This document shows, in pieces, positions 16,858 to 54,619 of a stretch of 64,000 nt of DNA; positions within the stretch are counted from its first letter, which is position 1; every line of letters starts with the position of its first letter. The position numbers and the translations under genes were made by a program. The stretch is from an uncultured Ignavibacteriota bacterium (GTDB lineage: Bacteria > Bacteroidota > Ignavibacteria > UBA10030 > BY39), in contig CAMTWO010000013.1 in NCBI GenBank assembly GCA_947085405.1, positions 84,193 through 148,192 of the forward strand. The letters run 5' to 3'. The notes under the pieces are model-generated. The model had not been told where the DNA came from. It worked only from the letters and a program-made list of their open reading frames with translations, and made no database searches.

Positions 16858-16931
16858 TAGCGGGAGAGGGATTCGAACCCACGACCTACGGATTATGATT
16901 CCGACGCTCTAACCAGCTGAGCTATCCCGCC
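16858..16931 (-). tRNA. tRNA with a CAU anticodon: elongator Met or the lysidine-modified Ile2 (TilS substrate)
   Basis: The reverse complement gives GGCGGGATAGCTCAGCTGGTTAGAGCGTCGGAATCATAATCCGTAGGTCGTGGGTTCGAATCCCTCTCCCGCT+A. It has a 7-bp acceptor stem, D and T arms with a TTCGAAT loop, an anticodon loop A-T-CAT-AA, and a 74 nt length with no encoded CCA. G1-U72 is paired, so it is not initiator-like. Confidence 0.8.
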
Positions 16932-36997: not shown

Positions 36998-36998
36998 T

Positions 36999-38015: not shown

Positions 38016-38019
38016 AACT

Positions 38020-38517: not shown

Positions 38518-38537
38518 TATAGATTGAGAGAGTTGTT

Positions 38538-38753
38538 ATGAATTCAAAATATGAAGTAATTATATATTGGAGTGAAGAAGACTCTATTTTTATAGCGGAA
38601 GTCCCAGAATTACACGGATGCATGGCGCACGGTAACACTCATGAAGAAGCCCTTCAACAAGCGAAAGAGGCGATAGATCTATGGATAGATACCGCTAAAG
38701 AATTTGGTGATACGATCCCCCAACCCAAAGGACGTAGATTAGTATTTGCATAG
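38538..38753 (+). CDS. HicB-like antitoxin (UPF0150 family) with no detectable HicA partner
   Basis: 71 aa with the HicB/RNase-H-like fold signature (YEVIIYWSEEDSIFIAEVPELHGCMAHGNTHEEALQQAKEAIDLWI). Confidence 0.6.
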   Translation: MNSKYEVIIYWSEEDSIFIAEVPELHGCMAHGNTHEEALQQAKEAIDLWIDTAKEFGDTIPQPKGRRLVFA

Positions 38754-38789
38754 GAAAAAGATAAACTCCTTATTTCAAAAGATAATTAG
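38753..38789. repeat. Direct repeat copy B (duplicate of the nuoI 3' end segment)
   Basis: It contains a 28-bp identical core, GAAAAGATAAACTCCTTATTTCAAAAGA. Confidence 0.7.
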
Positions 38790-38958
38790 AAATACTATAC
38801 GCTTACGATTTCAATAAATCAAAATATATGTGTTCTGTGTGAGCAGTTCGCCGTGGGCGAATTGAAACTCACGTCATTGATAGAAAAGAGCAACAGTTGG
38901 AGACGTGTTTCCTATTCCGATGGTTGCTTTCAAAATATTCGCTTTCGGAGGGAGGGGA

Positions 38959-41163
38959 ATGTTTAAACAATCCGAACATTCGTATCAGGAAAATACTTCG
39001 ACAATTTCCACGCAAGAAGTTACACTACATATTTCAGGTCTGAAATGTGCCTCGTGTGCATCTATTATTGATGAGTCTCTCAAAAAAACCGAAGGTGTTA
39101 TCGCATCAAATACTTCCTATGCAACTGATACTTGCAAGATAGTATACGACCCGTCAAAAATTTCAAAAAAAACCTTCCTCTCACAAATCAAAAATTTAGG
39201 ATATACTGCTAGCGAATATTTCGGCGACGAAAACTTTAAAACCGAACAACGTAAAACCTTAATTCGTTTTGGTATTGCGGCTCTTATCTCAATGAACATA
39301 ATGATGATGACGGTGCCACTCTACTGGGATTACTTCGAACAAATGGATTCACGTGTCGTATCTCTTTTCGGCTGGCTGATGTTCATCTTATCTATTCCGG
39401 TTCTTTTTATTGCCGGACTGCCTGTAATGAAAAAAGCAGTAACAAGCATTTTCCGCGGTCGTCCGGGAATGGAAACATTAATCGGCATAGGTGCTGGTGC
39501 AGCTTTCATTTATAGCACATTCGAACTCATATTTGTCCCCAACCCACATCTTTATTACGATACAGCGACATCGCTTATTGTTATCATTTTGTTTGGGAAA
39601 TTTGTCGAGAACTTTTTTCGATACAAAGCCTCCGGAGCAATTAACAGATTATACAGCGTCCTACCTAAAAAAATTCGCACTCGCGATTTGATGCACAATA
39701 TCAAATGGGTTGCAGCCGATGAACTTAAAGCCGAATCAGTTTTTGAAGTTCACTCAGGTGAAACTATTGCTGCCGATGGTGAAGTAATTGGAGGTAACGC
39801 AAACGTGGATGAATCGATGTTCACGGGTGAAGCAAAAGGAGTTGTAAAAAATACCGGAACCAAAGTTTACTCTGGATGTATTATTAAAAGTGGTTTTCTG
39901 CAAATAAAAGCATCTGTAACGGCAAAAAACTCTGCCCTCTCTACTATCGTGAAATGGATAGAGGATTCGCTGCAAAAAAAATCGGCGCTGCAAAGTTTTA
40001 GCGATAAAGTAGCACGATATTTTGTTCCTGCAATATTCTTGCTCTCAGCACTCACGCTCGTCGCTATGCTGTCCTTCGGGTTAAATTTTGAAACGAGTTT
40101 TTTGCGTGCTCTGACTGTCATGGTCATTGCGTGTCCTTGTGCGTTGGCTATCGCTGTTCCGGTTACTATTGTAACCTCGCTCGGTACGCTTGCCAAGAAT
40201 GGAATCTTCATACGAAATCCTGATATGTTTCAACTTCTCAGGAAAGTGAACGATGTTGTATTCGATAAGACCGGAACACTTACCTACGGAAAATTTTCTG
40301 TTATCGGATACAAGAATATGATTGAATCGGAACAAGCAGAAAAAATATTGAACGAGCTTGAAACCTATTCTTCGCATCCGGTAGCTGAAGCTATAAAAGA
40401 ATATTTTGGAGGGAAAGCCGAAAAAGTTAAAGTCGAGAATGTGAATGTTCACCCGCATGGTGTCATTGGAATGCACAACTTTCAGCAATGGACAATCGGC
40501 AGCGAAGAAATGTTCGGTTCAGATAAATATGAACTAAAAAGAGATTCACAAAAACACAGATTGAATGGTCATACAGTAGTTTACTTCGGAAGGGATTCAA
40601 AAATAGAAGGATATTTATGGATTGGCGATGTTGCGCGAGAGAAGGTAACGACTTTAATCAGCAGTTTGAGCAAGATAGGAAAACGGGTTCATATTATTTC
40701 CGGAGATAAAACCGCAACGACAGAAAATTTTGCCCGTAACGTTGGAATTGATATATTCTTGGGTGAAACATCACCGAAAGAAAAAATAGACTACATCAAA
40801 CAATTAAAGATGAAAGCCCCGGCGAAAACTGTAATGATGATTGGCGATGGTATTAACGATGCGGCAGCTTTAGCCGAAGCTGATATCGGAATCGCATTAA
40901 GCAGCGGAACTGATTTAGCGAAGGCATCCTCATCAATCATTATATTCAAAAATTTTTTAGATAAAATTCCTCTGCTTATCAATTATGCAAAGAGAATAAA
41001 TACAATCACGTTACAAAATTTTTCTTGGGCAGTTGTGTATAACATAGTTGGCGTGGGATTAGCAATCTCAGGAATGTTAAATCCGTTGATAGCTGCAATT
41101 ATGATGATGTTGAGCAGCATAACAGTTGTAGTAAATTCGCTTAGGTTGGTTGTGTTTAAATAA
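38959..41163 (+). CDS. copA: Heavy-metal (Cu+/Ag+) translocating P1B-type ATPase
   Basis: It has an HMA domain with CASC, a CPC motif in TM6 (VIACPCALAIA), DKTGTLT, and GDGINDA. The start is chosen at the ATG preceded by a GGAGGG SD, whereas the longest ORF begins with GTG at 38905. Confidence 0.85.
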   Translation: MFKQSEHSYQENTSTISTQEVTLHISGLKCASCASIIDESLKKTEGVIASNTSYATDTCKIVYDPSKISKKTFLSQIKNLGYTASEYFGDENFKTEQRKTLIRFGIAALISMNIMMMTVPLYWDYFEQMDSRVVSLFGWLMFILSIPVLFIAGLPVMKKAVTSIFRGRPGMETLIGIGAGAAFIYSTFELIFVPNPHLYYDTATSLIVIILFGKFVENFFRYKASGAINRLYSVLPKKIRTRDLMHNIKWVAADELKAESVFEVHSGETIAADGEVIGGNANVDESMFTGEAKGVVKNTGTKVYSGCIIKSGFLQIKASVTAKNSALSTIVKWIEDSLQKKSALQSFSDKVARYFVPAIFLLSALTLVAMLSFGLNFETSFLRALTVMVIACPCALAIAVPVTIVTSLGTLAKNGIFIRNPDMFQLLRKVNDVVFDKTGTLTYGKFSVIGYKNMIESEQAEKILNELETYSSHPVAEAIKEYFGGKAEKVKVENVNVHPHGVIGMHNFQQWTIGSEEMFGSDKYELKRDSQKHRLNGHTVVYFGRDSKIEGYLWIGDVAREKVTTLISSLSKIGKRVHIISGDKTATTENFARNVGIDIFLGETSPKEKIDYIKQLKMKAPAKTVMMIGDGINDAAALAEADIGIALSSGTDLAKASSSIIIFKNFLDKIPLLINYAKRINTITLQNFSWAVVYNIVGVGLAISGMLNPLIAAIMMMLSSITVVVNSLRLVVFK

Positions 41164-41184
41164 TTTAAATCAAAAAGGTAATTT

Positions 41185-44022
41185 ATGGATCGAAAAACTT
41201 TTTTACAGATTCTCGGATTAACAGGCGCCGGAATAGTTTCAGGATGTAAAACTGATACTCAAAGGTTAATAATTCCATACGTTATTCCGCCTCAAGAAAT
41301 CGTTCCGGGAATTGCAAACTGGTATGCATCTTCTTGTCGGGAATGTCCCGCCGGCTGCGGTCTGTTAGTTCGATGCAGAGAGGGGAGAGCAGTTAAAGTT
41401 GAAGGTAATCCTGAGCATCCGATTAATCAGGGTAAACTATGCGCTCGTGGACAGGCGACTTTGCAGGAATTATACAACCCCGACAGGTTGATAACCGCCC
41501 AAATGCGAAATGCAGAAGGGAACTTTGTTTCTCTCGAAACAGAAATTGCAATTAAACAAATCGGCAATCATGTAAAAAGTTTAGTATCCCAAAAAGCAGC
41601 AAAAGAAATTGCAATGATTACATCATTGAATAGTGGTTCGCTAGCTAATTGTGCAGATGAGTTTATGAATTCTATCGGTGGTGAAAAACCGGTTATTTAC
41701 GAAGCGGTAAATTACTCGGCAATCAAGTCGGCGTGCAATAAAGTGTTTGGTAAGAATATAGTTCCAAAGATGTCGCTTCAGGATGCTGATATGATTCTCT
41801 CAATTGGAGCTGATTTTTTGGAGACCTACGTCTCGCCCGTTGAGTTTGCACGACAGTTTGCAGATAACAGCGATGCGAAAGAAGGGCGAAAGAGCGTTTT
41901 CATTTATGCGGGGGCGACACTCTCGATGACAGGGAATGTAGCTGATAAATGGATTCAGATTCCGGCAGGAGGCGAAAAGCTGTTTGCCTTATCTCTTCTC
42001 AACGAAATCTGTAAACTCAATCCTAATCCGATTGCAAAAAACTTCAGCGAAGGTTTCAGTGCTGATAGTGTAGCTGGTAAAATTTTCATTTCACCAAACG
42101 ATATAAAACAGACGGCTAAACTTTTAGTCAAGGCAAAACGCCCCATCGTAATGGGTGGTCTGATGTGCGATGAAGAAACTCAAATTGCTATTATGCTCAT
42201 CAACAGTATTATCGGTGCAATTAGCAAAACAGTTTTCCTCAACAATCCACTCTCATATTCAAACATCTCAACAGATGAAGAGGTTGAAGCATTAATAAAA
42301 AAATGTTTGGAAGGTACGATTGATACACTTTTCATTCTCCAGACAAACCCGATATTCACGATGCCTAAACATTTCCGCTTCGATGAGGCACTGAAGAAAA
42401 TTCGTATGGTAGTTGCATTCACACCGATGCTGAACGAAACGACCGAGTATTCAAATTATGTAATTCCCACAAACACCCCACTTGAAGATTGGGACGAATA
42501 TCAACCCGATGCTTCAATCAGAAATTATCAACAACCTGTAATGGAGAGTGTTTTCGGAGTATCATCGACCGGCGATTACCTACTTGAAATATTTAAGTCA
42601 GTAACAGGTAAAACATTAAACAATTCAGCGACATATTACGATTTTATACGGGCTAATTCAAAATCTTCTGACGTAGAATGGAAACAAATTTTAGGGAAAG
42701 GGTTTTCATCCAAAAATATTTCTGTGTCTGAAACTCCCAAAATTTTAGCGGCAAATTTACTGAAACCAAAAATTCAAGCAATGAATTTCGATGCTATTTA
42801 TTTTATAACTACTCCATCTTATAAATACTACGACGGTCGGGGTGCAAACAAGCCGTGGATCAGCGAAATTCCCGATGCTTCATCTTCAATAGTTTGGGAA
42901 AATTATGTATCCCTCAACTCAAAATATGCCGAGTTGCATGGAATAAAAAATCACGATATTGTTGAACTCACAACCTCTGAAGGAAGTATAGAGATTCCCG
43001 CCAAAGTTTCAACAGACATCGAGTATCACAGCGTTGCAATTGCATTTGGTTTCGGGCATACAAAGTTTGGACGCTATGGAACGAATGTCGGATTTTCTCC
43101 CCTACCGTTGTTGAGCAAAAATCTCTGGTCAGCATCTACTATCAAAATTAAAAACACAGGTAAGTGGACCCGGCTGATTAGTCCGAGCGATACTGACCTA
43201 CAATATCAACGGGGAATTTCACAAGCGGTACTTTTATCGGAAATCGGTAAAGACAAAAAACATCACGAAGATTTGAATATGTATCCGAAAGTTCAGCACG
43301 AAACTTACCGCTGGGGTATGACGGTTGATTTGGATAAATGTATTGGATGCGGCGCTTGTATAGCAGCTTGTTATGCAGAAAATAATATCCCGACAGTTGG
43401 AAAAGAGTTGATATCAAAAGGGCGGGAAATGCAATGGCTGCGGATTGAACGCTACCGAGAAGATGAATTTGCTGATTATGGAAACCGGTATATCCCGATG
43501 ATGTGTCAGCATTGCGAGAATGCACCTTGCGAGCCTGTCTGTCCCGTTTACGCCGCATACCATAGCAAAGACGGTTTGAATGTTCAGGTTTACAACCGGT
43601 GTATCGGTACGCGATATTGTTCGAACAACTGTCCTTACAAAGTTCGCCGCTTCAATTGGTTCAGTTACGAACACCCGCATCCCACACATTTACAGTTGAA
43701 TCCCGATGTTACAGTGCGCGATAAAGGTGTGATGGAGAAATGCACATTTTGTGTACAACGAATAGTCGAGGCACGCGATAAAGCAAAAGACGAGGGCAGG
43801 TTAGTTCGAGACGGCGAAATCAAACCGGCTTGTGTGCAAACCTGTCCGACGAATGCTTTAGTTTTCGGAAATTTATTAGACGAAGAATCGTTAGTATCAA
43901 AATTAAAAAACAATCCGCGGGCATATCGTCCGATCGAAGAATATAACACCCGGTCGGCAATTACTTACCTGCAGAAAGTTGTAAAAGATGATTACGCTCC
44001 AAAGAAAAAAAATAAAGTGTGA
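41185..44022 (+). CDS. actB: Alternative Complex III subunit ActB (fused molybdopterin-like B1 and Fe-S B2 domains)
   Basis: 945 aa with a Tat-like signal (RKTFLQILGLTGAG) and a cofactor-less molybdopterin-oxidoreductase-like domain. The C-terminal domain carries four Cys clusters (CIGCGACIAAC, CQHCENAPCEPVCP, CIGTRYCSNNCP, CVQTCP). Confidence 0.85.
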   Translation: MDRKTFLQILGLTGAGIVSGCKTDTQRLIIPYVIPPQEIVPGIANWYASSCRECPAGCGLLVRCREGRAVKVEGNPEHPINQGKLCARGQATLQELYNPDRLITAQMRNAEGNFVSLETEIAIKQIGNHVKSLVSQKAAKEIAMITSLNSGSLANCADEFMNSIGGEKPVIYEAVNYSAIKSACNKVFGKNIVPKMSLQDADMILSIGADFLETYVSPVEFARQFADNSDAKEGRKSVFIYAGATLSMTGNVADKWIQIPAGGEKLFALSLLNEICKLNPNPIAKNFSEGFSADSVAGKIFISPNDIKQTAKLLVKAKRPIVMGGLMCDEETQIAIMLINSIIGAISKTVFLNNPLSYSNISTDEEVEALIKKCLEGTIDTLFILQTNPIFTMPKHFRFDEALKKIRMVVAFTPMLNETTEYSNYVIPTNTPLEDWDEYQPDASIRNYQQPVMESVFGVSSTGDYLLEIFKSVTGKTLNNSATYYDFIRANSKSSDVEWKQILGKGFSSKNISVSETPKILAANLLKPKIQAMNFDAIYFITTPSYKYYDGRGANKPWISEIPDASSSIVWENYVSLNSKYAELHGIKNHDIVELTTSEGSIEIPAKVSTDIEYHSVAIAFGFGHTKFGRYGTNVGFSPLPLLSKNLWSASTIKIKNTGKWTRLISPSDTDLQYQRGISQAVLLSEIGKDKKHHEDLNMYPKVQHETYRWGMTVDLDKCIGCGACIAACYAENNIPTVGKELISKGREMQWLRIERYREDEFADYGNRYIPMMCQHCENAPCEPVCPVYAAYHSKDGLNVQVYNRCIGTRYCSNNCPYKVRRFNWFSYEHPHPTHLQLNPDVTVRDKGVMEKCTFCVQRIVEARDKAKDEGRLVRDGEIKPACVQTCPTNALVFGNLLDEESLVSKLKNNPRAYRPIEEYNTRSAITYLQKVVKDDYAPKKKNKV

Positions 44023-45362
44023 AAGGGGAATTGATGGAAGGTTTAACATACAAACAAGTTAATGATTCTGTAATAAATACACTTGCCCCGCCGCGTAAGT
44101 TTTACTTTGCTATTGTCGGATTTTTCGCACTCCTGTTTGCTATGGGAATGAGTGTTTGGTTTTACATGATCGTTAATGGACTTGGAGTAGCGGGTATCAG
44201 GCATCCTGTTATGTGGGGTGTGTTTATTACGAACTTTGTTTTCTGGGTTGGTATTGCCCACTCAGGCACTCTGATCTCGGCGATACTTTATTTGTTCCGG
44301 GCAGAATGGCGAATGTCGATTTATCGCAGCGCCGAAGCGATGACTGTTTTTGCAGTCGCAACCGCCGGTATGTATCCGCTGATTCATTTGGGCAGAGTGT
44401 GGGTTGCCTATTGGACTTTACCTATACCGAACGAGATGCTTTTGTGGCCCAATTTCAAATCTCCATTAATTATGGACGTGATCGCAATCTCTACATATCT
44501 GACTGTAAGTGCGAGTTTCTTTTTAATCGGTTTGATACCCGATATTGCAGCGGTGCGCGAGAAAGCCACAGGCATCCGAAAGAAAATTTACACGATACTT
44601 TCTTTCGGCTGGCACGGAACGAACGAACAATGGCGGCACTACGGCAGGGCTTATCTTTTCTTCGCAGCTCTTGCAACACCGCTTGTCATATCTGTGCATA
44701 GCGTTGTGTCGTGGGACTTTGCTCTTTCGATCGTTCCCGGATGGCACAGCACGATATTCGCACCTTACTTCGTAGCCGGTGCAATTCACTCAGGACTCGC
44801 TCTCGTAATAACTCTACTCATCCCGTTACGAAAAATCTTCAAAGTCGAAAATATTATTACAATCAAAAATTTCGAAAGTATGGCAAAAGTTATTTTACTT
44901 ACAGGTTTGATTGTGGGGTACGCTTATGCAATCGAATATTTTTTGGCTTGGTATAGCGGTAACCCTTATGAACTTGCGATTTTCAAATGGCGTGCGAGTG
45001 GCGATTACGCCCCCGCATTTTGGACGATGGTAATTTGTAACAGTATCGTTCCTTTATTATTCTTCTTCAAAAAAATCAGAACATCAATTGTTGGACTTCT
45101 TGTCGTATCGATATTAATAAACGTAGGTATGTGGTTCGAGCGTTATGTAATAATTATAACTTCGCTTGCCCACGAATTTCTTCCTGCGGCTTGGGGCAAC
45201 TACTCACCAACTTGGGTTGAAATCGGGATCTCTTTCGGAAGCTGGGGTTTCTTTTTGATGTTGTTTTTCCTTTTTGCAAAATTCCTTCCTTCAATTTCAA
45301 TTACTGAAGTGAAAGAAATCCTCCCTACACCCAAAAGAAAAGGAGGCAGCAATGAACACTAA
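44019..45362 (+). CDS. actC: Alternative Complex III subunit ActC (NrfD/PsrC-like quinol-binding membrane subunit)
   Basis: 447 aa polytopic NrfD-family protein, translationally coupled to actB. Confidence 0.85.
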   Translation: MKGELMEGLTYKQVNDSVINTLAPPRKFYFAIVGFFALLFAMGMSVWFYMIVNGLGVAGIRHPVMWGVFITNFVFWVGIAHSGTLISAILYLFRAEWRMSIYRSAEAMTVFAVATAGMYPLIHLGRVWVAYWTLPIPNEMLLWPNFKSPLIMDVIAISTYLTVSASFFLIGLIPDIAAVREKATGIRKKIYTILSFGWHGTNEQWRHYGRAYLFFAALATPLVISVHSVVSWDFALSIVPGWHSTIFAPYFVAGAIHSGLALVITLLIPLRKIFKVENIITIKNFESMAKVILLTGLIVGYAYAIEYFLAWYSGNPYELAIFKWRASGDYAPAFWTMVICNSIVPLLFFFKKIRTSIVGLLVVSILINVGMWFERYVIIITSLAHEFLPAAWGNYSPTWVEIGISFGSWGFFLMLFFLFAKFLPSISITEVKEILPTPKRKGGSNEH

Positions 45363-45855
45363 AAAAATTATATCGGCTTCTTTTCTCTATGTTGACGATT
45401 TTGTAAATGTAATTAAACACTTCAAATCTGAAAAACGAAAATTCGTTACTTACTCACCAGTTCCCAATCACGAAATCGAAGAAGCTTTGGGGGCGAAAAA
45501 AAGTAAAGTCGGTTTGTTCACACTCGCCGGTGGTATTATAGGTTTGATAAGCGGATTTAGTTTAGCCGGATTTACAGCGGCAGAGTGGAATTTGGTTCTC
45601 GGCGGTAAACCTCCTGTTACTTTAATTCCTTTTGTTGTAATTGGATTCGAGTTCACGATTTTATTCGGCGCCCTCGCAACCTTGTTAGGTTTGATAATTA
45701 ACGCAAAGTTACCCTCATACAAAAAATTAAAAGGATATAAACCTGAATTTACCGTTGACCATTTTGGAATATCTTTGGAAGCTGATGAAACAGAGGTGGC
45801 ATCGCTCACCGACTCATTTAATACCTTCGGTGCCAAGGAGGTAACCTATGAATAG
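45352..45855 (+). CDS. actD: Alternative Complex III subunit ActD (DUF3341 membrane protein)
   Basis: 167 aa with two TM helices in the DUF3341 pattern. It overlaps both of its neighbours. Confidence 0.75.
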   Translation: MNTKKIISASFLYVDDFVNVIKHFKSEKRKFVTYSPVPNHEIEEALGAKKSKVGLFTLAGGIIGLISGFSLAGFTAAEWNLVLGGKPPVTLIPFVVIGFEFTILFGALATLLGLIINAKLPSYKKLKGYKPEFTVDHFGISLEADETEVASLTDSFNTFGAKEVTYE

Positions 45856-47098
45856 AGAACAACTTAGGCAGGCACTCGCAACTTCCATTGAAGCAAACGA
45901 CAAATCACTTTTCAAACCTTACCTGATAGCTCTGCTTGCGGTAGGAGTAGTAGGATTTTTGGTCGGAATGTTGGCGGGCGAAACTCAGCAAGTGATGCAG
46001 GCATATTTGATTAACTTTGTTTTTTGGATAGGCATTGCTCAAGGTGCGGTAATACTTTCGGTTGTGCTGCGACTTACAAACGCAAAGTGGGGAAGACCGA
46101 TCATGCGGATTGCCGAAAGTGCCTCGGCGTTTTTACCGGTTACAATTTTATTGTTTATAATAATTATGCTCGGCGGTGAAAAACTATTTATCTGGATTAA
46201 TGAACCTGTGGCTCACAAAGCAGCTTATCTGAATGCACCTTTTATGTATTCTCGCGTACTCGTTTCATTGGTGTTGATGACAGTTTTGAGTTTGATTTAT
46301 GTTGGAAACTCCATTCGTAACGATCTTGCAGCAATCTATCACGGTAAAATTGTTCCTGAACATTTCAGGAAATTATTAACAAACTACGATGTCAGCCGCA
46401 TCGAAAAATCGAACGATAAGCAAACTACATTGAGCGTAATTTTAGCAATTTGTTACGCCGTATGCTATTCGGTTTTAGCAATCGATTTAATTATGTCGCT
46501 CGACCCGCATTGGGTTAGTACTCTTTTCGGGGCTTACTATTTTATCGGTTGCTTTTACACGGGGATTGCATTCACGATAATTATGGCTTCATTTTTTATC
46601 GGACGACCCGAAGGTGAAATCATCGGCAGCAAACAGTTCCACGATTTAGGAAAATTACTTTTCGGGTTTGCAATTGTCAACGGCGATTTCTTCTACTCCC
46701 AATTTCTCGTAATCTGGTATGGCAATCTGCCCGAAGAAACACATTATATAATCGAACGGACTCAACACGAACCGTGGGCAACTATGGCTTACGTCGTTTT
46801 ACTTTTATCTTTTATTGCACCGTTTATAATCCTAATCAACAAAAAAATAAAAATGAATCCGGTCGCGATGCGGTGGATATCGATTGGAATCCTCTTGGGA
46901 TTGTGGTTAGAACGAACACTTTTAATAGCCCCCTCGGTTTCCGGCAATACATCGTTCCCAAACGTTTGGATTCAAATTACAATCACACTTGGATTCTTAG
47001 GAATTATCATAACATCAATTAAATACTTTTGGTCGAAATACCCAATGGTCGTTTACGGTGATCCACTACTAAAACATAGTTTGGAAGGCGAAAAATGA
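45848..47098 (+). CDS. actF: Alternative Complex III subunit ActF (ActC paralog)
   Basis: 416 aa. It is clearly homologous to ActC: NFVFWIGIAQGAVILSVVLRL..W aligns with NFVFWVGIAHSGTLISAILYL..W. Confidence 0.75.
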   Translation: MNREQLRQALATSIEANDKSLFKPYLIALLAVGVVGFLVGMLAGETQQVMQAYLINFVFWIGIAQGAVILSVVLRLTNAKWGRPIMRIAESASAFLPVTILLFIIIMLGGEKLFIWINEPVAHKAAYLNAPFMYSRVLVSLVLMTVLSLIYVGNSIRNDLAAIYHGKIVPEHFRKLLTNYDVSRIEKSNDKQTTLSVILAICYAVCYSVLAIDLIMSLDPHWVSTLFGAYYFIGCFYTGIAFTIIMASFFIGRPEGEIIGSKQFHDLGKLLFGFAIVNGDFFYSQFLVIWYGNLPEETHYIIERTQHEPWATMAYVVLLLSFIAPFIILINKKIKMNPVAMRWISIGILLGLWLERTLLIAPSVSGNTSFPNVWIQITITLGFLGIIITSIKYFWSKYPMVVYGDPLLKHSLEGEK

Positions 47099-47634
47099 GC
47101 GAAAATACAAATATCGAAAAACCGTTCCATCCGGTTTTCAAATGGTTTTTAATTGCATCGATGTTTGGCATAACATTATGGATGCTTCATCTTGTTTATA
47201 TTCAACCTCAGCAGAGGATAGGTGTTGCCCAACCGATTCCTTTCAGCCACCGCTTGCACGTTACTGATAAACAGATTGATTGCAAATATTGCCACAGCTA
47301 CACCGACCGTTCGCAATTTCCCGGGATGCCCGCTGTGCAATTGTGCGTCAGTTGCCACAAATACATTATCCCTCAGCATCCTGAAATTAAAAAGCTACAT
47401 TCGTATTACGATAATAATAAACCGATACCGTGGAAACGTGTATTTTTTCAACCCGATTTTGTTTTCTTCAATCACAAACGACATATAAAACTCGGGGTTG
47501 AATGCAAAACCTGCCACGGCAACATCGAACAAATGGACCGCGTTACGCAAACTTTCCCGATGAAAATGGAATTTTGTGTAACCTGCCATCGGCAGAATAA
47601 AGCTTCAGTAGAATGTTATATCTGTCATCATTAA
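47095..47634 (+). CDS. actA: Membrane-anchored pentaheme cytochrome c, ActA-like
   Basis: 179 aa with an N-terminal TM helix and five CxxCH motifs (CKYCH, CVSCH, CKTCH, CVTCH, CYICH). It is coupled to actF. Confidence 0.75.
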   Translation: MSENTNIEKPFHPVFKWFLIASMFGITLWMLHLVYIQPQQRIGVAQPIPFSHRLHVTDKQIDCKYCHSYTDRSQFPGMPAVQLCVSCHKYIIPQHPEIKKLHSYYDNNKPIPWKRVFFQPDFVFFNHKRHIKLGVECKTCHGNIEQMDRVTQTFPMKMEFCVTCHRQNKASVECYICHH

Positions 47635-47652
47635 AATTGGAAGGAAACTAAA

Positions 47653-49014
47653 GTGAAATTCTACGATAAACCAAACAGCGCCGCTAAACACTTCTACCTC
47701 ACATCTGTCTTCTGGGTAGTGATTGCAACTTTATACGGATTAACAGCAGCTATTGAGTTGGTGGCTCCCGATGTATTCGGTAATATTCCCGAATTGCTGT
47801 TCAGCCGCATCCGACCAATTCATGTCAATCTCGTATTGTTCGGCTTTTTAACTCCTTCGCTAATCGGTTCGGCGTTATACATTATTCCGGTGCTGACACA
47901 AACTAAACTTCACAGCGAACGCTTGGCTAATTTTTCTGTTTTATTGTGGAATATTTTTACCACTGCTTCAGTGGTTACACTATCACTCGGACAAAATCAG
48001 GGGCGCGAGTATGCTGAGTTAATTTGGCCCATCGACATACTGGTTATTATTTGCTTTCTCATTTTATCTTATGTTGTTGTTCGGACACTTTTAGATAGAA
48101 AAGAAAACCTGATGTTTGTTTCGCTCTGGTATATTACAGGTGCATTCATCTGGACTTCAATTTTATATACACTCGGTAACGTAGTATGGAATCCGGATAC
48201 CGGTGCACTCAAAGGTGTAACCGATGCAATCTGGCTTTGGTTTTACGGACATAATATTTTCGGCTTATTATTAACTCCGCTTGCAATCGGTGCCGCTTAT
48301 TACATTATCCCACGTGTAACCGGCGCTCCGATTTACAGCCATACACTTTCACTAATCGGTTTTTGGATGCTGCTTGTAATGTACACACACATCGGAACTC
48401 ATCATTTAATTCAAGCACCTGTTCCGCAATGGCTAAAAGTAATTTCAATCGTTGACTCAATCGGAATGCTGATTCCTGTCATGACTTTTTTGGCGAATGT
48501 ATGGCTGCCGCTGAAAGACCGTTTCGGAAAAATCCACAGAGACATCGGCGGTAAGTATGTTTTTGCCGGAACAATATTTTACTTTTTAGTTTGTATCCAA
48601 GGTCCGCTCCAATCGCTTCCTTCGGTTCAACGCGTTACACATTTTAATAATTGGGTTGTTGCACACGCTCATCTCGCATTACTCGGTTTTGCTGCTTTTA
48701 TTGCAATAGGTGCAATGTATTATTTTCTTCCAAAAGTTACCGGAAGAGAAATTTACTCGAAGACACTCGCCGATTTTCAATATTGGCTGATGATGATTGG
48801 TGTGAATGGATTCTTCCTCGTCTTAACCGCAGTTGGTTTGGTGCAGGGGAGTTCGTGGTTACACGGCGAAACTATTTACCGCATTTTACCTGAGATGCAG
48901 CCATACTTTGTAATCCGAATTTTATTAGGTGTATTTGTAGTCTCCGGCTTTTTAATCGGTCTATATAATGTTGTGATGACGATATTCAAAGGGAAGGAGG
49001 TTGAATCAATATGA
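47653..49014 (+). CDS. ccoN: Heme-copper oxidase catalytic subunit, cbb3-type CcoN-like
   Basis: 453 aa with 12 TM helices. It has a conserved His in TM2, WFYGHNIFGLLLT (CuB His), an HH pair (GTHHL), and an HAH pair in a late helix. Confidence 0.75.
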   Translation: MKFYDKPNSAAKHFYLTSVFWVVIATLYGLTAAIELVAPDVFGNIPELLFSRIRPIHVNLVLFGFLTPSLIGSALYIIPVLTQTKLHSERLANFSVLLWNIFTTASVVTLSLGQNQGREYAELIWPIDILVIICFLILSYVVVRTLLDRKENLMFVSLWYITGAFIWTSILYTLGNVVWNPDTGALKGVTDAIWLWFYGHNIFGLLLTPLAIGAAYYIIPRVTGAPIYSHTLSLIGFWMLLVMYTHIGTHHLIQAPVPQWLKVISIVDSIGMLIPVMTFLANVWLPLKDRFGKIHRDIGGKYVFAGTIFYFLVCIQGPLQSLPSVQRVTHFNNWVVAHAHLALLGFAAFIAIGAMYYFLPKVTGREIYSKTLADFQYWLMMIGVNGFFLVLTAVGLVQGSSWLHGETIYRILPEMQPYFVIRILLGVFVVSGFLIGLYNVVMTIFKGKEVESI

Positions 49015-49973
49015 AAATGACAACGAGTGTTTTACTTGCAGGCACGATGATAATATTTGCAGTGATATTTGTGATTGTTGTTTTAATACCGACTTACCAA
49101 GCGGAAGTGAATCCTTCGGAGATGGTTCGTGAGCGAACAGATATCGAAGATGAAGGAAGACAAATTTATATTGCTAACGGCTGCACATATTGCCACTCGC
49201 AGTATATTCGACCGCAGGATTGGGACTTAGGGGCTGAGAGAATAGCCAAAGAAGGCGATTACGTGTTAGACGAACCGGTATTGCTTGGTTCCATTCGCAC
49301 TGGTCCCGATTTGTCGCAAGCAGGAGGCGAACATCCTGACGACTGGCATCGCGCACATTTTATAAATCCACGCTACACTCGTCCCGAATCAATTATGCCG
49401 CCATTCAAATTTTTAGGGGACGAAAAAGTAAAGTCGCTTACTGCTTATGTGCAAAGTCTCGGTGGCAAGGATGCAGACGCCCGTGTTAGCCGGCAAAAAC
49501 ATTGGCATAAAATATTAACTGAAGCTTACGAAAAAGGTCCCGATTCAAACGTCGCAACATTGCATCGCCATATTCCTGAGATGTGGATAAATATGCCGAA
49601 CCCGTATCCAGCAACCGAGGCAGGTTTGAAACGAGGCGAACGGATTTACCAATCCTTCTGTCTCGGATGCCATGGACCTGTTGGAGATGGACAAGGTCCC
49701 GCAGCTAAATATTTATATCCGCCGCCTCTTAATTTTACTGTTTTAAAAAGAACAGGTGTTTCGGGTGGAATTTTCTACTATCAAATAATGAACGGTATTA
49801 CAGGCACGGCTATGCCCTACTTCAAACGTGAACTCGAATCGGAAAAAATTTGGGATGTATCGAATTATGTGATGATAAATTTTGTAGGAAAGAACGATGC
49901 CAACACAGAACCCCGCGGTATAGATGCATCTTATGAACCGGTTGACACTTCAACAGCGAAAGGAGGTAAATAA
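49011..49973 (+). CDS. ccoO: cbb3-type oxidase diheme subunit: CcoO fused to an extra monoheme CcoP-like domain
   Basis: 320 aa with a TM anchor and CcoO/FixO signatures (NGCTYCHSQYIRP...GPDLSQAG...WHRAHFINPRYTRPESIMPPF). A second heme domain follows (CLGCHGPVGDG...GTAMPYF). Confidence 0.75.
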   Translation: MKMTTSVLLAGTMIIFAVIFVIVVLIPTYQAEVNPSEMVRERTDIEDEGRQIYIANGCTYCHSQYIRPQDWDLGAERIAKEGDYVLDEPVLLGSIRTGPDLSQAGGEHPDDWHRAHFINPRYTRPESIMPPFKFLGDEKVKSLTAYVQSLGGKDADARVSRQKHWHKILTEAYEKGPDSNVATLHRHIPEMWINMPNPYPATEAGLKRGERIYQSFCLGCHGPVGDGQGPAAKYLYPPPLNFTVLKRTGVSGGIFYYQIMNGITGTAMPYFKRELESEKIWDVSNYVMINFVGKNDANTEPRGIDASYEPVDTSTAKGGK

Positions 49974-50245
49974 TGTTTTTACAATTTTGGATTTTATTTA
50001 TGATCGTCGGGCTTACCATTTCGATGTGGGTTTTTTATTGGGCTGTTCGCAAAGGGCAGTTCGAAGAACAAGACAGGGCAAAATATTTGCCTCTGTTACA
50101 CCCGCCACAAACAAATAATACGACAGATGTTTTAAAGGGCGAACAAAAATTTGTCTGGTCGCCTGAACTTATTAGTTTACTGATTGCTATGTTTTTAGCA
50201 TTAACGGCAATCGCGAGAATGCTTTATATCGTTTTTACAAATTAA
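49973..50245 (+). CDS. Small membrane protein, CcoS/FixS- or CcoQ-like
   Basis: 90 aa with a TAATG overlap to ccoO and an AGGAGG SD. The N-terminal TM is followed by RKGQFEEQD, which resembles the CcoS R-x-GQ-[FY]-[DE][DE] motif. Confidence 0.45.
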   Translation: MFLQFWILFMIVGLTISMWVFYWAVRKGQFEEQDRAKYLPLLHPPQTNNTTDVLKGEQKFVWSPELISLLIAMFLALTAIARMLYIVFTN

Positions 50246-50262
50246 TTTGAAAGGATATTTAT

Positions 50263-50529
50263 ATGCCTCCGTATGAAATTTTGCAGGAACAATATATACT
50301 CCTTGCTTTGTTAGGCGGGACTGTGCTTGTTACTTTTTTGTATGTTGCGATAAACACATTCCGTACATATAAACGAAAAGAAGCAACTGAAAAAATAGAA
50401 AAATTTCCCGACGGAATTACTGAAGGACATAAACCGATTCCTCTTTTTCTGATTTTACTTTACATCGCATATTTTCTGTGGGCGATTATTTACGTTGGAG
50501 CTGTTGCAATTTGGGGTTTTAATTTTTAA
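50263..50529 (+). CDS. Small two-TM membrane protein (oxidase-associated, unknown)
   Basis: 88 aa with a good SD and two hydrophobic helices. Confidence 0.35.
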   Translation: MPPYEILQEQYILLALLGGTVLVTFLYVAINTFRTYKRKEATEKIEKFPDGITEGHKPIPLFLILLYIAYFLWAIIYVGAVAIWGFNF

Positions 50530-50541
50530 AAAGGAAATAAT

Positions 50542-50775
50542 ATGGAAGAAAACAAAAAAGATAAATTAAAAGGCTGGATACTCGTTGGTGCTGCGATAGT
50601 TTTTATGGTAGGATATTTTTTATACACATATCTCTTCCTGAAAGATGCCCCACCCGAAAATTGGAATTTCGGTACGACTCCGTTTGTTCCAGGTTCTTCA
50701 AACCAAGCTGTGGAGAATTATGATAAAAAGCAGCCGCCAATGCAAACAGTTAAAATTGATTCTTTAAAAAAGTAA
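50542..50775 (+). CDS. Small single-TM membrane protein (oxidase-associated, unknown)
   Basis: 77 aa with a good SD and one TM helix. Confidence 0.35.
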   Translation: MEENKKDKLKGWILVGAAIVFMVGYFLYTYLFLKDAPPENWNFGTTPFVPGSSNQAVENYDKKQPPMQTVKIDSLKK

Positions 50776-50787
50776 AGGATTACAGGT

Positions 50788-51279
50788 ATGATAAATATTA
50801 CTGCTTTATTATTAATATCGCTGTTACTGATAGGGTGTGAATACGGACGAATGTATGACCAACCGAATCCGAGACCGACTAAAATTGTTCAGCAGACTGT
50901 TCCTGAAAACATAGTGCAGAGCACTAAAGGTTACGGTGAACGGGAAATGAAAGTCAACCCATACCAACCAACAGGAGAAAATTTAAAGTTCGGTCAGAAA
51001 ACGTATCGAGCATTCTGCCGCCATTGTCACGGTGCCGATTGGAAAGGTCATACTCACGTTGGCGATGGTTTCCCTGTGCCGCCAACCGATTTAAACCTGC
51101 AACAAATCCAAACTAAACCCGACTCTGATTTTTATGCACATATATATTATGGTGGGAAATACTCGCCGGCTTTGGGCACAAACATGTCCGACGAAGAAAT
51201 ATGGAAAGTGATTATGTTAATTAAAACCGGGAGAACCAAAACAATTGATTCGTGTGTTGTAAACATACCTATTAACTAG
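50788..51279 (+). CDS. Monoheme c-type cytochrome lipoprotein (possible ActE/CcoP-like electron carrier)
   Basis: 163 aa with a lipobox (LLLIGC) and a single CRHCH heme motif. It has class I cytochrome c features. Confidence 0.65.
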   Translation: MINITALLLISLLLIGCEYGRMYDQPNPRPTKIVQQTVPENIVQSTKGYGEREMKVNPYQPTGENLKFGQKTYRAFCRHCHGADWKGHTHVGDGFPVPPTDLNLQQIQTKPDSDFYAHIYYGGKYSPALGTNMSDEEIWKVIMLIKTGRTKTIDSCVVNIPIN

Positions 51280-51350
51280 ACTAGAACAAGCATCTTTTTG
51301 CATCTCCACCACATTTTTCTTATCTTAATTCAACTCAAAGAAAAAATATT

Positions 51351-51560
51351 ATGCTTATTATTCAACCACAAAAAGTAACTTCAAGCGAAATTGTATTAAA
51401 GAAAAGCGATTTTGAAGAACTTATCAAACGAGCCAATCAAGTTGAAAAAGTAATTATTACAAAATCAGATAATACATATCGTTTAGAAGATGTAGAATTT
51501 ACATTACATGATATTTGGGATAATCAGGACGACGAAATAATATGGCAGAAGTATTTGTAA
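51351..51560 (+). CDS. Putative antitoxin partnered with the MazF-like toxin
   Basis: 69 aa ORF immediately upstream of, and overlapping by 19 nt, a MazF/PemK-like gene. Its sequence is not diagnostic. Confidence 0.4.
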   Translation: MLIIQPQKVTSSEIVLKKSDFEELIKRANQVEKVIITKSDNTYRLEDVEFTLHDIWDNQDDEIIWQKYL

Positions 51561-51826
51561 ACCAACGAGAAATATGGTTGTGTCCATTCCCATTTTCTGA
51601 TCTGTCAGGTAAAAAAGTACGCCCTGTTCTAATTCTATCCAACGAAACATATAATTCTTCGTGTCAAGATGTTGTCGTTTGTGCAGTTACTGCACAAATC
51701 AAATACCAACCGTATTCAATAGTAGTTGGCCAAAGAAATTGTGAACAAGGCAATTTGTTGCACGAATCAGCAATCAAAGTGGATTCGTTATTTAAGCTGA
51801 ATAAAAATTTATTGTTAAAATCTTAA
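51542..51826 (+). CDS. MazF/PemK-family endoribonuclease toxin
   Basis: 94 aa. REIWLCPFPFSDLSGKKVRPVLILSNETYNSSCQDVVVCAVTAQ parallels E. coli MazF GDLIWVDFDPTKGSEQAGHRPAVVLSPFMYNNKTGMCLCVPCTTQ. Confidence 0.7.
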   Translation: MAEVFVNQREIWLCPFPFSDLSGKKVRPVLILSNETYNSSCQDVVVCAVTAQIKYQPYSIVVGQRNCEQGNLLHESAIKVDSLFKLNKNLLLKS

Positions 51827-51837
51827 TAAAGGAAACA

Positions 51838-52929
51838 ATGAATAACATAAATATAGATAATATTCTGAATGCTTTAAAAGTTGTTATAGACCCCGACCTA
51901 CACAAAGATATAGTTACACTTGGGTTTGTAAAAGACATTAAGATAGACAATAGAGATGTAAGTTTCAAAATAGAATTAACAACACCCGCCTGTCCGGTGC
52001 GAGATCAGTTCAAGATGGCTGCTACAAAAGCTATCAGGGATGCTTTTCCGGAAGTCGGCGACATCCAGATTGAAATGACGAGCAGCGTTCGTAGAGCACC
52101 GCAGCTCAATTTGAACAACATACTGACTAATGTAAAAAACACAATCGCCATTGCCAGTGGTAAAGGCGGCGTTGGCAAATCGACTGTTGCCGTAAATTTA
52201 GCAGTAGCTTTAGCTCAGGATGGCGCCAAAGTTGGCTTGATAGATTCCGATATTTACGGTCCGAGCATTCCGCTGATGATGGGTATAAACGCTTCTCCAA
52301 AGTTGATAAAGAACAAATTAATACCACTTGAGGCTCACGGTGTAAAAGTAATGTCGATTGGTTTTTTAGTCGATCCGAATCAGGCAGTTATTTGGCGCGG
52401 TCCAATGGCAAGCGGAGCTGTAAGGCAATTTATGACCGATGTTGAATGGGGCGATTTAGATTACTTGATTTTCGATTTGCCTCCGGGAACCGGCGATATC
52501 CAATTAACACTCGTGCAAACAATTCCTTTGTCGGGTGCAGTAATCGTTACGACGCCACAGGATATTTCACTTGCCGATGCCCGCAAAGGTTACGCAATGT
52601 TCGAGAAGGTGAACGTCCCGATTCTCGGCATCATCGAAAATATGAGCTATTTTATCTGTTCGCATTGTGGTCAGCGTGAGGAAATATTTTCGTACGGTGG
52701 TGGTCGGAAAGAAGCCCAAGAGTTGGGCACCCAGTTTTTAGGCGAGATTCCGATTGATACAAAGATTCGCATCGGTGGCGATGTTGGTGTGCCGATTGTT
52801 GCACAGGATAAAAACTCTCCTCAGTCAACGGCAATCAAAAACATTGCCCGCAATATGGTTGCACAATTAAGTATTAATGCCATTAATGGAATTACGACAA
52901 AAAGAGTAGAAGTAAATTTAAACATTTAA
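51838..52929 (+). CDS. apbC: Fe-S cluster carrier ATPase Mrp/ApbC (NBP35 family) with an N-terminal DUF59/MIP18 domain
   Basis: 363 aa with a deviant Walker A (IAIASGKGGVGKSTVAVNLA) and a CxxC motif (CSHC). Confidence 0.9.
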   Translation: MNNINIDNILNALKVVIDPDLHKDIVTLGFVKDIKIDNRDVSFKIELTTPACPVRDQFKMAATKAIRDAFPEVGDIQIEMTSSVRRAPQLNLNNILTNVKNTIAIASGKGGVGKSTVAVNLAVALAQDGAKVGLIDSDIYGPSIPLMMGINASPKLIKNKLIPLEAHGVKVMSIGFLVDPNQAVIWRGPMASGAVRQFMTDVEWGDLDYLIFDLPPGTGDIQLTLVQTIPLSGAVIVTTPQDISLADARKGYAMFEKVNVPILGIIENMSYFICSHCGQREEIFSYGGGRKEAQELGTQFLGEIPIDTKIRIGGDVGVPIVAQDKNSPQSTAIKNIARNMVAQLSINAINGITTKRVEVNLNI

Positions 52930-53317: not shown

Positions 53318-54619
53318 ATGAATTATCCGTTCTGGGATATTCCTTTTATTGGTGGTGGAATACTTATTGGCTTTGTAGCCATTATACATACATTCGTAGC
53401 TCAATTTGCAATCGGTGGTGGACTGTTTCTTGTCCTTACCGAACACAAAGCTTACCGCGAAAATAATCCCAAAATTATAGACTATCTAAAAATCCATTCT
53501 AAATTTTTTATCCTCCTCACACTCGTATTTGGCGCACTTACTGGTGTTGCGATCTGGTTTACCATCGGACTTGTAACGCCGATGGCTACTTCTTCACTGA
53601 TTCATATATTTGTTTGGGGATGGGCAATCGAGTGGGTCTTTTTTTTCATCGAAATCGCCGCTGCTATGATTTACTACTACACGTGGGACAAGCTCGACAG
53701 GAAAACTCATCTAACAATTGGTTGGATTTATTTTATCGCGGCGTGGATGAGTTTGTTCGTTATCAACGGCATACTCACATTTATGCTCACACCCGGCGAT
53801 TGGCTGCAAACTAAAAGTTTCTGGGATGCGTTTTTCAATCCCACGATGCTGCCATCACTCGTAATGCGAACTGCTGTAACTATCGCACTGGCAGGGCTAT
53901 ATGCTCTATTGACTTCGTCAAATTTAAAAGACGATGACCTCAGGAAAACAATGGTAAAATATTCAGCTAAATGGCTCGTTCTTCCGTTTATCATTATGCC
54001 TATCGGTGGTTTGTGGTTCGTGATGACGCTGCCCGACATGGCGTTCGATATAATTTCCGGCGGTGCACCCGCAGTTACTCTATTTGCTGCTGCGGGAGTT
54101 TTCTTTTCAATTCTAATTTTTGTGTTCGCATACTTTTTACCTTACCGTCATCCGGAAAGATTTCCCGTAGCGTTAGCTGTTTTATTCCTGATGTTAGGAT
54201 TATCAGTAACCGCTGTAAGCGAATGGGTGCGCGAAGCAATCCGAAAGCCATTCATCATATACGATTATATGTATTCAAATAATGTCTTTAAAACCGAAGC
54301 TGATAATTTTAGAATTGCCGGTATCTTGCCATCTGCAAAATGGGCGGCAGTGAATTCAGTGGATGAAGCAAATATTATGAAAGCAGGCGAACAAGTTTTT
54401 AAACTTCAATGCCAAAGCTGCCACACTGTTCAAGGTTATAACGGAATTAAAATATTAACAAAGGGCTGGCAGGAGCCATTCATCGAAAACCAAATCGAAC
54501 ATTTGAACCAACTTAAAGGATTTATGCCGCCTTTTATGGGTTCAGAATCTGAAAAGAAAGCACTTGCAAAATGGTTGTACGAATTGAATAAAACTGAAAA
54601 AATTATTAGAAATCAATAA
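53318..54619 (+). CDS. Cytochrome bd-family (CydA-like) membrane protein fused to a C-terminal monoheme cytochrome c domain, paralog 1
   Basis: 433 aa with an AAGGAG SD. The N-terminus (IIHTFVAQFAIGGGLFLVLTE) and WGWAIEWVFFFIEIAAAMIYYYTW resemble the CydA helix-I His and helix-III glutamate region. The C-terminus has CQSCH...MPPFMG. Confidence 0.6.
   Translation: MNYPFWDIPFIGGGILIGFVAIIHTFVAQFAIGGGLFLVLTEHKAYRENNPKIIDYLKIHSKFFILLTLVFGALTGVAIWFTIGLVTPMATSSLIHIFVWGWAIEWVFFFIEIAAAMIYYYTWDKLDRKTHLTIGWIYFIAAWMSLFVINGILTFMLTPGDWLQTKSFWDAFFNPTMLPSLVMRTAVTIALAGLYALLTSSNLKDDDLRKTMVKYSAKWLVLPFIIMPIGGLWFVMTLPDMAFDIISGGAPAVTLFAAAGVFFSILIFVFAYFLPYRHPERFPVALAVLFLMLGLSVTAVSEWVREAIRKPFIIYDYMYSNNVFKTEADNFRIAGILPSAKWAAVNSVDEANIMKAGEQVFKLQCQSCHTVQGYNGIKILTKGWQEPFIENQIEHLNQLKGFMPPFMGSESEKKALAKWLYELNKTEKIIRNQ

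Follow-up and report, generated by a model that had tools for sequence, protein, structure and literature searches.

A conserved gene cassette for alternative complex III and a predicted cbb3-type oxidase, with an actE-like gene behind the oxidase genes

To our knowledge, the only supercomplexes of alternative complex III (ACIII) that have been seen structurally are those with an aa3 or a caa3 oxidase. ACIII operons are often followed by oxidase genes, and ACIII forms supercomplexes with caa3 and aa3 oxidases (PMC5928083, PMC8361435). In Flavobacterium johnsoniae, a direct path for electrons from ACIII to the oxidase has been proposed (PMC8552683), and in Methylacidiphilum the genes for ACIII are co-located with those for a cbb3 oxidase (PMC6688271). 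ACIII, cbb3 oxidases, act clusters that are rearranged or lack ActE, and the co-location of ACIII and cbb3 genes are all already known (PMC8552683, PMC6688271). Here we describe a cassette of act and cco genes from an uncultured Ignavibacteriota bacterium (contig CAMTWO010000013.1). We analyzed a 64-kb window (the whole stretch of DNA considered here) within this 226-kb contig, and all coordinates are in window numbering, on the + strand unless noted.

We propose that this cassette probably encodes a self-contained respiratory branch from menaquinol to O2, made up of a six-subunit ACIII, a variant cbb3 oxidase, and the oxidase's own factors for copper delivery and maturation. The cassette has 12 genes (38905-51279), which are as follows (aa, amino acids; TM, transmembrane; E, E value).

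38905..41163, + strand: copper-translocating P1B-type ATPase, CcoI/FixI-like, with HMA, E1-E2 ATPase, and hydrolase domains
41185..44022, + strand: ActB, 945 aa, a fusion of B1 (molybdopterin-like) and B2 (iron-sulfur), with molybdopterin-like and 4Fe-4S Pfam domains
44019..45362, + strand: ActC, NrfD-like quinol-binding membrane subunit (6f0k_C, E = 2.4e-142)
45352..45855, + strand: ActD (DUF3341), two-TM subunit (PF11821, E = 2.9e-37; ACIII ActD chains, 1e-10)
45848..47098, + strand: ActF, second NrfD-like membrane subunit (6f0k_F, E = 2.2e-40, versus 1e-15 for ActC chains)
47095..47634, + strand: ActA, pentaheme cytochrome c of 179 aa with an N-terminal TM helix (five CxxCH)
47653..49014, + strand: CcoN, predicted catalytic subunit of a C-family heme-copper O2 reductase (COX1, E = 1e-80)
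49011..49973, + strand: CcoO with a C-terminal monoheme class-I cytochrome c domain, 320 aa, diheme (FixO, E = 1.7e-35; Cytochrome_CBB3, E = 4e-15; two CxxCH)
49973..50245, + strand: CcoS/FixS-like assembly protein, 90 aa, with an extra C-terminal TM helix (PF03597, E = 7e-6)
50263..50529, + strand: heme-free two-TM protein of 88 aa, like the N-terminal membrane domain of CcoP (PF14715 FixP_N, E = 1.4e-4)
50542..50775, + strand: single-TM protein of 77 aa with no Pfam or NCBIfam match; homologues in 5 of 19 related loci
50788..51279, + strand: putative ActE homologue, a monoheme lipoprotein cytochrome c of 163 aa (lipobox LIGC, one CxxCH)

Every open reading frame (ORF) named in an earlier reading of this DNA (the original prediction) exists at these coordinates, on the + strand. 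That reading described an ACIII in the order B-C-D-F-A, with act genes that overlap or are coupled and with no ActE between D and F. This is what we found: each subunit is matched by Pfam and by chains of solved structures, at E values too small to have arisen by chance, the four junctions within actB-C-D-F-A are overlaps of 4-11 nt (nucleotides; from the coordinates), and actD runs directly into actF. The order actABCDEF of ACIII is not kept, as actB-C-D-F-A is followed by other genes and then by the actE-like gene, and actA is placed after actF, not before actB. We regard this as an organizational feature and not a biochemical one. Upstream of actB within the window there is no actA- or actE-like gene; nuoG/H/I, a HicB-like gene, and the copper ATPase are found there.

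The cassette is a common and conserved unit that is not peculiar to this genome. We scanned one genome per species with an alignment of ActA and labelled ORFs by phmmer. We then classified 81 loci by gene order: 80 from the scan, plus L001, a relative with 78% ActA identity whose genes are arranged as in the window, from nuoG through those downstream. This comparison of synteny, which the original prediction had called for, yielded 19 loci of the B-C-D-F-A type, 54 of the canonical A-B-C-D-(E)-F type, and 8 that were unclassifiable. Besides L001, the B-C-D-F-A loci are from Desulfobacterales (including metagenome-assembled genomes, or MAGs, of Desulfobacula and Desulfatitalea), other "delta proteobacterium" and Myxococcales MAGs, Planctomycetota MAGs, and one MAG of an unclassified bacterium. 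The genes for CcoN and for CcoO with its heme domain directly follow actA in 18 of these 19 loci (in the 19th, L018, the contig ends within ccoN), and all 15 of the loci whose contigs extend far enough have an actE-like gene. Most of the 19 also have the ccoS-like, small membrane-protein, and actE-like genes, often with the ATPase next. (The ATPase is upstream in L001 and downstream in most of the other relatives.) Sampling from the side of the oxidase gave the same picture. The two-heme CcoO has homologues in 3,428 clusters at 90% identity (E ≤ 1e-20), and 3/3 long contexts that we sampled from these show the same cassette order.

As the cassette is common to the Ignavibacteria/Bacteroidota host, Desulfobacterales, Planctomycetota, and others, its distribution suggests horizontal spread. 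In neighbor-joining (NJ) trees, the nearest neighbors of the window share its gene-order type for every subunit, and identity within a type is higher than between types. The trees for ActB, ActC, ActD, and ActF each contain a large clade of pure B-C-D-F-A type, with the Planctomycetota loci and L015/L007 falling outside it. We do not claim strict monophyly for the B-C-D-F-A type, as the trees support clustering and not a resolved clade. Melioribacter roseus and Ignavibacterium album were considered and rejected: they have canonical-order clusters with ActD-E fusions and an adjoining A-family oxidase. In two relatives, the actE-like gene is separated from the copper ATPase gene by a gene for a DsbD_2/CcdA-like thiol-reductant transporter (L082, 12445-13137; L084, 12541-13224). 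This family is involved in cytochrome c maturation, and it extends the assembly genes of the cassette in some relatives.

The original prediction saw a streamlined ACIII-cbb3 module in which ActE had been replaced, and it suggested that the lipoprotein cytochrome encoded by the last gene of the cassette might be the equivalent of ActE. We built an alignment of the 163-aa lipoprotein family with homologues from 15 related loci, and we compared its profile, by hhalign, to that of a canonical ActE set (32 proteins encoded by the monoheme gene between actD and actF). The two families align over 160 columns with a probability of 100% and E = 3.7e-38. The alignment begins in the signal/anchor, takes in a short N-terminal motif whose Met never varies (PxM in ActE and GRM in the cassette family), and continues to the C-terminus. 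In two control comparisons, only the heme core aligned: the C-terminal heme domain of CcoO matched canonical ActE at E = 6.5e-18 (96 columns), and the lipoprotein family matched the CcoO-fused heme domain at E = 4.5e-17. From these comparisons, the last gene is a predicted actE that was relocated behind the oxidase genes, retained and not lost. So, the idea of an ACIII-cbb3 module stands and the equivalence to ActE is strengthened to homology, but the replacement of ActE does not hold, since the gene is still present and has moved behind the cco genes. Because it has moved there, the cco genes are flanked by act genes on both sides.

The alternative is that the lipoprotein stands in for CcoP, subunit III of the oxidase, and that this ACIII lacks ActE, with ActA passing electrons straight to the cytochromes of the oxidase. 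The gene does sit after the cco genes and not among the act genes, its product matches PF13442 (Cytochrome_CBB3), and NCBI names a close homologue in a related MAG "cbb3-type, subunit III" (that is, CcoP). Also, canonical ActE has an invariant distal Met, which the cassette family does not conserve; S, T, Q, H, or D stands in its place. An ACIII without ActE would not be unheard of, as ActE is dispensable in F. johnsoniae and is variable and absent from some act clusters (PMC8552683). Nevertheless, we consider this alternative unlikely. The alignment with canonical ActE is full-length, with both the N-terminal Met motif and the membrane anchor inside it; the CcoO-fused heme domain is matched 21 orders of magnitude less strongly; and among chains of solved structures, ActE (4.9e-5 and 2.9e-4) beats CcoP (0.013). 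Finally, a FixP_N domain is missing from the lipoprotein, which has a single heme against the two of CcoP. The subunit III label of NCBI does not appear to be supported, and automated annotation would be mislabelling ActE as "CcoP" in the genomes that carry the cassette. (An AlphaFold2 model of the ActE-like protein, from a shallow alignment of 12 sequences, has a mean pLDDT, or predicted local distance difference test score, of 53.9, which is too low to bear on this question.) We also considered Pelobacter carbinolicus, which has been described as having no normal ActE, and rejected it as a parallel, as it has a different variant with an eight-TM ActE and no link to an oxidase.

The oxidase was predicted to be of the cbb3 type (C family) with an extra heme domain on CcoO, and the matches to FixO and Cytochrome_CBB3 listed above agree. 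The prediction had also raised the question of whether CcoN might group with nitric oxide reductases (NORs). Against chains of solved structures, CcoN matches the CcoN of cbb3 at E = 1.7e-68 and NorB at 4.5e-9. In an alignment with Pseudomonas stutzeri CcoN, the ligands of heme b, heme b3, and CuB (H60, H207, H257, H258, H345, and H347) are all kept. The active-site tyrosine (Y251, helix VII) is present in the CcoN of the window and in all 17 CcoN of related cassettes, and this tyrosine separates O2 reductases from NORs (PMC11214002). Because all of the metal ligands and the C-family tyrosine are kept, we predict that CcoN is an oxygen reductase and not an NOR. The tyrosine and the far weaker match to NorB speak against both a cNOR and a qNOR identity.

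CcoN does depart from the described enzymes at position 323. The glutamate at this position hydrogen-bonds the proximal His of heme b3. It was termed "mandatory" for authentic cbb3 enzymes in a paper on Melioribacter (PMC5492636). In the CcoN of the window it is a Gln, and in the related cassettes it is Gln in 16 of 17 CcoN and Leu in the other. To see how common this is, we took the top 150 matches to CcoN in a library of representatives at 50% identity; 59 of these have all six core residues, and at position 323 there are 46 Gln and 10 Glu among them. As 46 of 59 representatives have Gln, the Gln type is a large branch of the C family and no accident. This natural Glu-to-Gln variant, which is found in most close relatives, bears on the low potential of heme b3 and on the high O2 affinity of cbb3 enzymes. 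In the same survey, most or all of the heme and copper ligands are missing from many CcoN-related representatives (P0300, P0371, P0388, P0393, P0425, and others). The eight positions that we checked read, for example, YQYVHLYH or FQWIRLTE, and these proteins have the look of degenerate paralogues of subunit I without catalytic function.

Could an enzyme with this substitution act mainly on another substrate in vivo, such as NO, or serve for detoxification without conserving energy? The replacement of Glu323 in all 17 related CcoN as well as in the window would fit with this, as would the facts that NO reduction by C-family enzymes is possible in vitro (PMC11214002) and that many of the carriers are sulfate reducers or other anaerobes. 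However, the tyrosine that would form the cross-link and the three histidines of CuB are intact, there are no NOR-type features, CcoN is much closer to solved CcoN chains than to NorB, and the CcoS and copper ATPase genes point to the insertion of CuB. We think that a role other than O2 reduction is very unlikely, and we continue to treat CcoN as a predicted O2 reductase.

The remaining oxidase subunits are also unusual. CcoO matches solved CcoO chains at E = 3.7e-28. No other part of the cassette is as well conserved as its C-terminal heme domain, which shows 64-87% identity to the window across phyla and a mean column identity of 71%. This strong conservation fits with a docking or electron-relay surface. 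No gene for a diheme CcoP is present in the cassette, only the heme-free 88-aa protein and the monoheme domain fused to CcoO. The 88-aa protein scores 21.9 bits against FixP_N, which is below the Pfam cut-off of 24.9, and its motif (FPxGIxxGxxPxP...W..Y) is kept in 14 homologues. Similarly, the signature of the CcoS-like protein (WAxxxGQFxDQxRARYLPL) is kept in 14 homologues.

The ACIII is most likely complete, with six core subunits, and its predicted activity is that of a quinol:cytochrome c (or quinol:oxidase) oxidoreductase. ActB is matched by the ActB chains of ACIII, with E values from 1e-135 to 1e-103 (the best are 8k9e_B, 6lod_B, and 6f0k_B, at 1e-135 to 1e-129). Its N-terminus, MDRKTFLQILGLTGAGIVSGC, has a signal like that for twin-arginine translocation (Tat) and a lipobox with Cys21. 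All 15 cysteines of B2, which are the predicted ligands for one [3Fe-4S] and three [4Fe-4S] clusters, are invariant. In B1, residues 51, 54, 58, and 86 form a CxxCxxxC...C motif that is typical of the N-terminal [4Fe-4S] cluster in molybdenum-bis-pyranopterin guanine dinucleotide (Mo-bisPGD) enzymes. It is found in 17/17 B-C-D-F-A loci versus 22/52 canonical-order loci, and a fifth iron-sulfur cluster in ActB is possible at this site.

The quinol site of ActC is also conserved. In Rhodothermus marinus, the pocket is formed by P136, H139, L166, D169, V250, and D253, with S245 and H247 as neighbors, and E122 of ActD has been named as well (PMC5928083). All eight ActC residues are kept in the window (P136/H139/L166/D169/S245/H247/V250/D253 correspond to P120/H123/L150/D153/S225/H227/V230/D233), and a glutamate is present in the second TM helix of ActD (E100, which aligns with E122). 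In two Planctomycetota loci (L016 and L020), the ActC gene is about 630 aa long and we detected no separate ActD; this points to a fusion of ActC with ActD in a cassette of the same type. ActA is closest to the ActA chains of Chloroflexus and Rhodothermus ACIII (8k9e_A, 5e-36; 6f0k_A, 3e-34), and none of its heme motifs or of four distal His varies across 25 homologues. (In Desulfobacterales, the fifth heme motif of ActA is CxxxCH in place of CxxCH.) ActG and ActH were not found in the cassette.

We propose the following path for electrons. Menaquinol would be oxidized at the conserved site in ActC. The electrons would then travel through ActB, along its iron-sulfur chain, and over ActA's five hemes to the lipid-anchored ActE homologue, to the heme c domain fused to CcoO, or to both. 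From the heme of CcoO, they would pass to heme b of CcoN and on to heme b3-CuB, where O2 would be reduced. In this scheme, the CcoO-fused heme domain takes over the electron-entry role of the canonical CcoP, and the heme-free 88-aa protein may keep the membrane contact of CcoP. The linked CcoI-like ATPase and CcoS-like protein would see to the insertion of copper and to maturation. The copper ATPase scores 450 bits against the NCBIfam model for copper P-type ATPases (TIGR01511), which passes the cut-off of 397; its true start is possibly the ATG at 38959.

Because the act genes (BCDFA...E) bracket the cco genes, co-assembly of the two complexes is probable, and a supercomplex with direct heme-to-heme transfer is possible. 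The interleaved order of act and cco genes makes co-assembly a concrete prediction. A different possibility is that ACIII and the oxidase are independent complexes that share an operon, with soluble or other membrane-anchored cytochromes shuttling between them and no supercomplex. There is precedent for this, as Roseiflexus ACIII was isolated without an oxidase (PMC8552683), and the ACIII of R. marinus reduces soluble cytochrome c too, as well as the iron-sulfur protein of high potential known as HiPIP (PMC5928083). On the other hand, the bracketing is seen in 15/15 loci that are long enough to show it, the extra heme domain of CcoO is unusually well conserved, and the cassette does not include a gene for a soluble cytochrome c. 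So, we consider independent complexes to be somewhat unlikely, and we continue to favor co-assembly.

A stronger version of co-assembly can be stated, although we offer it tentatively and think that it is rather less likely than not to hold in full. ACIII and cbb3 might form an obligate supercomplex that acts as a single menaquinol:O2 oxidoreductase, in which ActE and the CcoO heme form the bridge and CcoP is dispensed with. The oxidase would belong to a large, uncharacterized "Gln-type" branch of the C family with altered properties of heme b3, and the whole, with its copper pump and CcoS, would be a horizontally mobile aerobic module among anaerobes (sulfate reducers, Ignavibacteria, and Planctomycetota). 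If true, ACIII-cbb3 would be a third supercomplex solution, and one that is carried by many sediment anaerobes and microaerophiles. With or without a supercomplex, the cassette probably gives anaerobes and microaerophiles a capacity for respiration or for O2 scavenging, and recognizing it as one unit should improve predictions of O2 respiration and tolerance for sulfate reducers and for other MAGs.

The whole cassette (38905-51279) is most likely a single operon with a single transcript, to judge from its overlaps and short gaps. Beyond the overlaps among the act genes, actA and ccoN are 18 nt apart, ccoN and ccoO overlap by 4 nt, and ccoO and the ccoS-like gene overlap by 1 nt (all from the coordinates). 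The gaps that follow the ccoS-like gene (from 50245 to 50788) are 17, 12, and 12 nt. The widest gap in the 12-gene unit is the 21 nt from the end of the copper ATPase gene to the start of actB, and the operon probably starts at the ATPase (38905) rather than at actB. More broadly, we infer the single transcript, the direction of electron flow, and the supercomplex from gene packing, from the bracketing of cco by act genes, and from precedent (ACIII-caa3/aa3 supercomplexes and the frequent act-oxidase "superoperons").

Several points weigh against this reading of the cassette. First, the adjacency of genes does not by itself prove an ACIII-cbb3 supercomplex. Second, a scan of 38400-52000 found 33 promoter-like and 15 terminator-like sites, versus 37 and 12 expected from shuffled sequence, so the site counts do not exceed those of shuffled sequence and the single transcript is inferred from gene packing; the scan does not cover Bacteroidota promoters. 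Third, the Gln in place of Glu323 could change the active-site properties of CcoN. Fourth, without the distal Met, the heme ligation of the ActE-like protein, and hence its redox role, may differ from that of canonical ActE. Fifth, the B-C-D-F-A type splits off in the ActA tree with a bootstrap of 39/100, and for the remaining subunits it is not strictly monophyletic. Finally, as the analysis covers 64 kb of a 226-kb contig, a second act cluster or a bc1 complex could lie elsewhere.

The surroundings of the cassette include several other genes of interest. Upstream is a nuoG-nuoH-nuoI trio (35306-38517, + strand) without other complex I genes alongside. Its adjacency to the cassette is kept in L001, and it matches the "third ndhGHI locus" of Melioribacter roseus (PMC3534657). 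Between the trio and the cassette lies a HicB-like antitoxin gene (38538-38753, + strand) with no HicA ORF nearby, and directly 3' of the cassette is a small ORF paired with a PemK/MazF toxin gene (51351-51826, + strand). As both the HicB-like gene and the PemK/MazF pair are missing from the otherwise syntenic L001, they are recent insertions. About 8 kb upstream of the cassette is a sigma-54-dependent activator (29857-30906, + strand) with an AAA+ domain and a Fis-type helix-turn-helix, and in which a receiver domain was not detected. A single tRNA gene (16858-16931, - strand) is farther upstream.

About 2 kb 3' of the cassette are two tandem genes for truncated CydA-like proteins (53318-54619 and 54620-55933, + strand). 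Each protein has only the N-terminal half of PF01654, together with a C-terminal monoheme c domain. The pair fits the "OR-C1a/b" family of cytochrome bd-like proteins, for which cytochrome c is the proposed electron donor (preprint 10.1101/2021.01.16.426971). It is followed by a gene for a 376-aa protein with no family match (55930-57060, + strand) and then by a ZIP transporter gene, and this set is also present in L001. Thus, several O2-related systems (ACIII-cbb3 and the CydA-like pair) cluster around the cassette.

How does the cassette compare to known systems? In the open-access literature, we found no description of the B-C-D-F-A order, of ActE behind the cco genes, or of Gln-type CcoN, with the act-diversity surveys (Refojo et al.) lying outside this coverage. 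The closest described ACIII is that of R. marinus, whose chains are at or near the top of the solved matches for every subunit. The two share the six core subunits, the quinol site, the iron-sulfur cysteines, the five hemes of ActA, a lipoprotein ActE, and oxygen reductase genes downstream. They differ in gene order (B-C-D-F-A...E here, A-B-C-D-E-F(-G) in R. marinus) and in the partner oxidase (C family here, A family there). Also, ActG and ActH are without a counterpart in the cassette, its ActE is without the canonical distal Met, and B1 of its ActB has the four-Cys motif. The ACIII-aa3 of F. johnsoniae (PDB 6BTM), which comes from the same broad phylum group, likewise has a lipid-anchored ActB and ActE. 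However, its ActA is about 440 aa long and carries a mobile N-terminal domain with a sixth heme, whereas the ActA of the window has 179 aa and five hemes; here, the extra relay heme is on CcoO instead.

On the side of the oxidase, the canonical reference is the CcoNOQP of P. stutzeri (PDB 3MK7/5DJQ), to which CcoN is about 35-40% identical (by eye on the alignment). Both have the heme and CuB ligands and Tyr251 in CcoN and the heme c of CcoO, and the dependence on CcoS and CcoI is implied here by the linked genes. The cassette differs in that a diheme CcoP is missing, CcoO carries a further heme domain, the FixP_N-like protein is separate and free of heme, and Gln takes the place of Glu323. 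The architecture of CcoO with a C-terminal cytochrome c is also that of the NCBIfam model PRK14486 ("bifunctional subunit II/cytochrome c"), but at 141 bits, versus a cut-off of 447, CcoO is not an equivalog member.

Two other systems that oxidize or reduce quinones are worth comparing. The top NCBIfam matches of ActB are to QrcB and QrcC, and that of ActA is to QrcA. Qrc (QrcABCD), a related complex that serves sulfate reducers as a menaquinone reductase, has a single NrfD-like subunit and no ActD or ActF, whereas the cassette has two NrfD-like subunits and ActD. We reject Qrc as the identity of this complex, because the NCBIfam scores (243, 223, and 100 bits) are below the cut-offs (440, 400, and 180) and ACIII chains match far better. 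In the bc1-cbb3 supercomplex of Rhodobacter capsulatus (PDB 6XKW/6XKX; PMC8361435), a quinol-oxidizing complex is coupled to cbb3 via membrane-anchored c-type hemes, much as we propose here, but bc1 is unrelated to ACIII and CcoP is present. Taken against all of these systems, the parts of the cassette are ordinary. What is noteworthy is their organization, along with two conserved departures: an oxidase with Gln323 and no CcoP, and an ActE without the distal Met.

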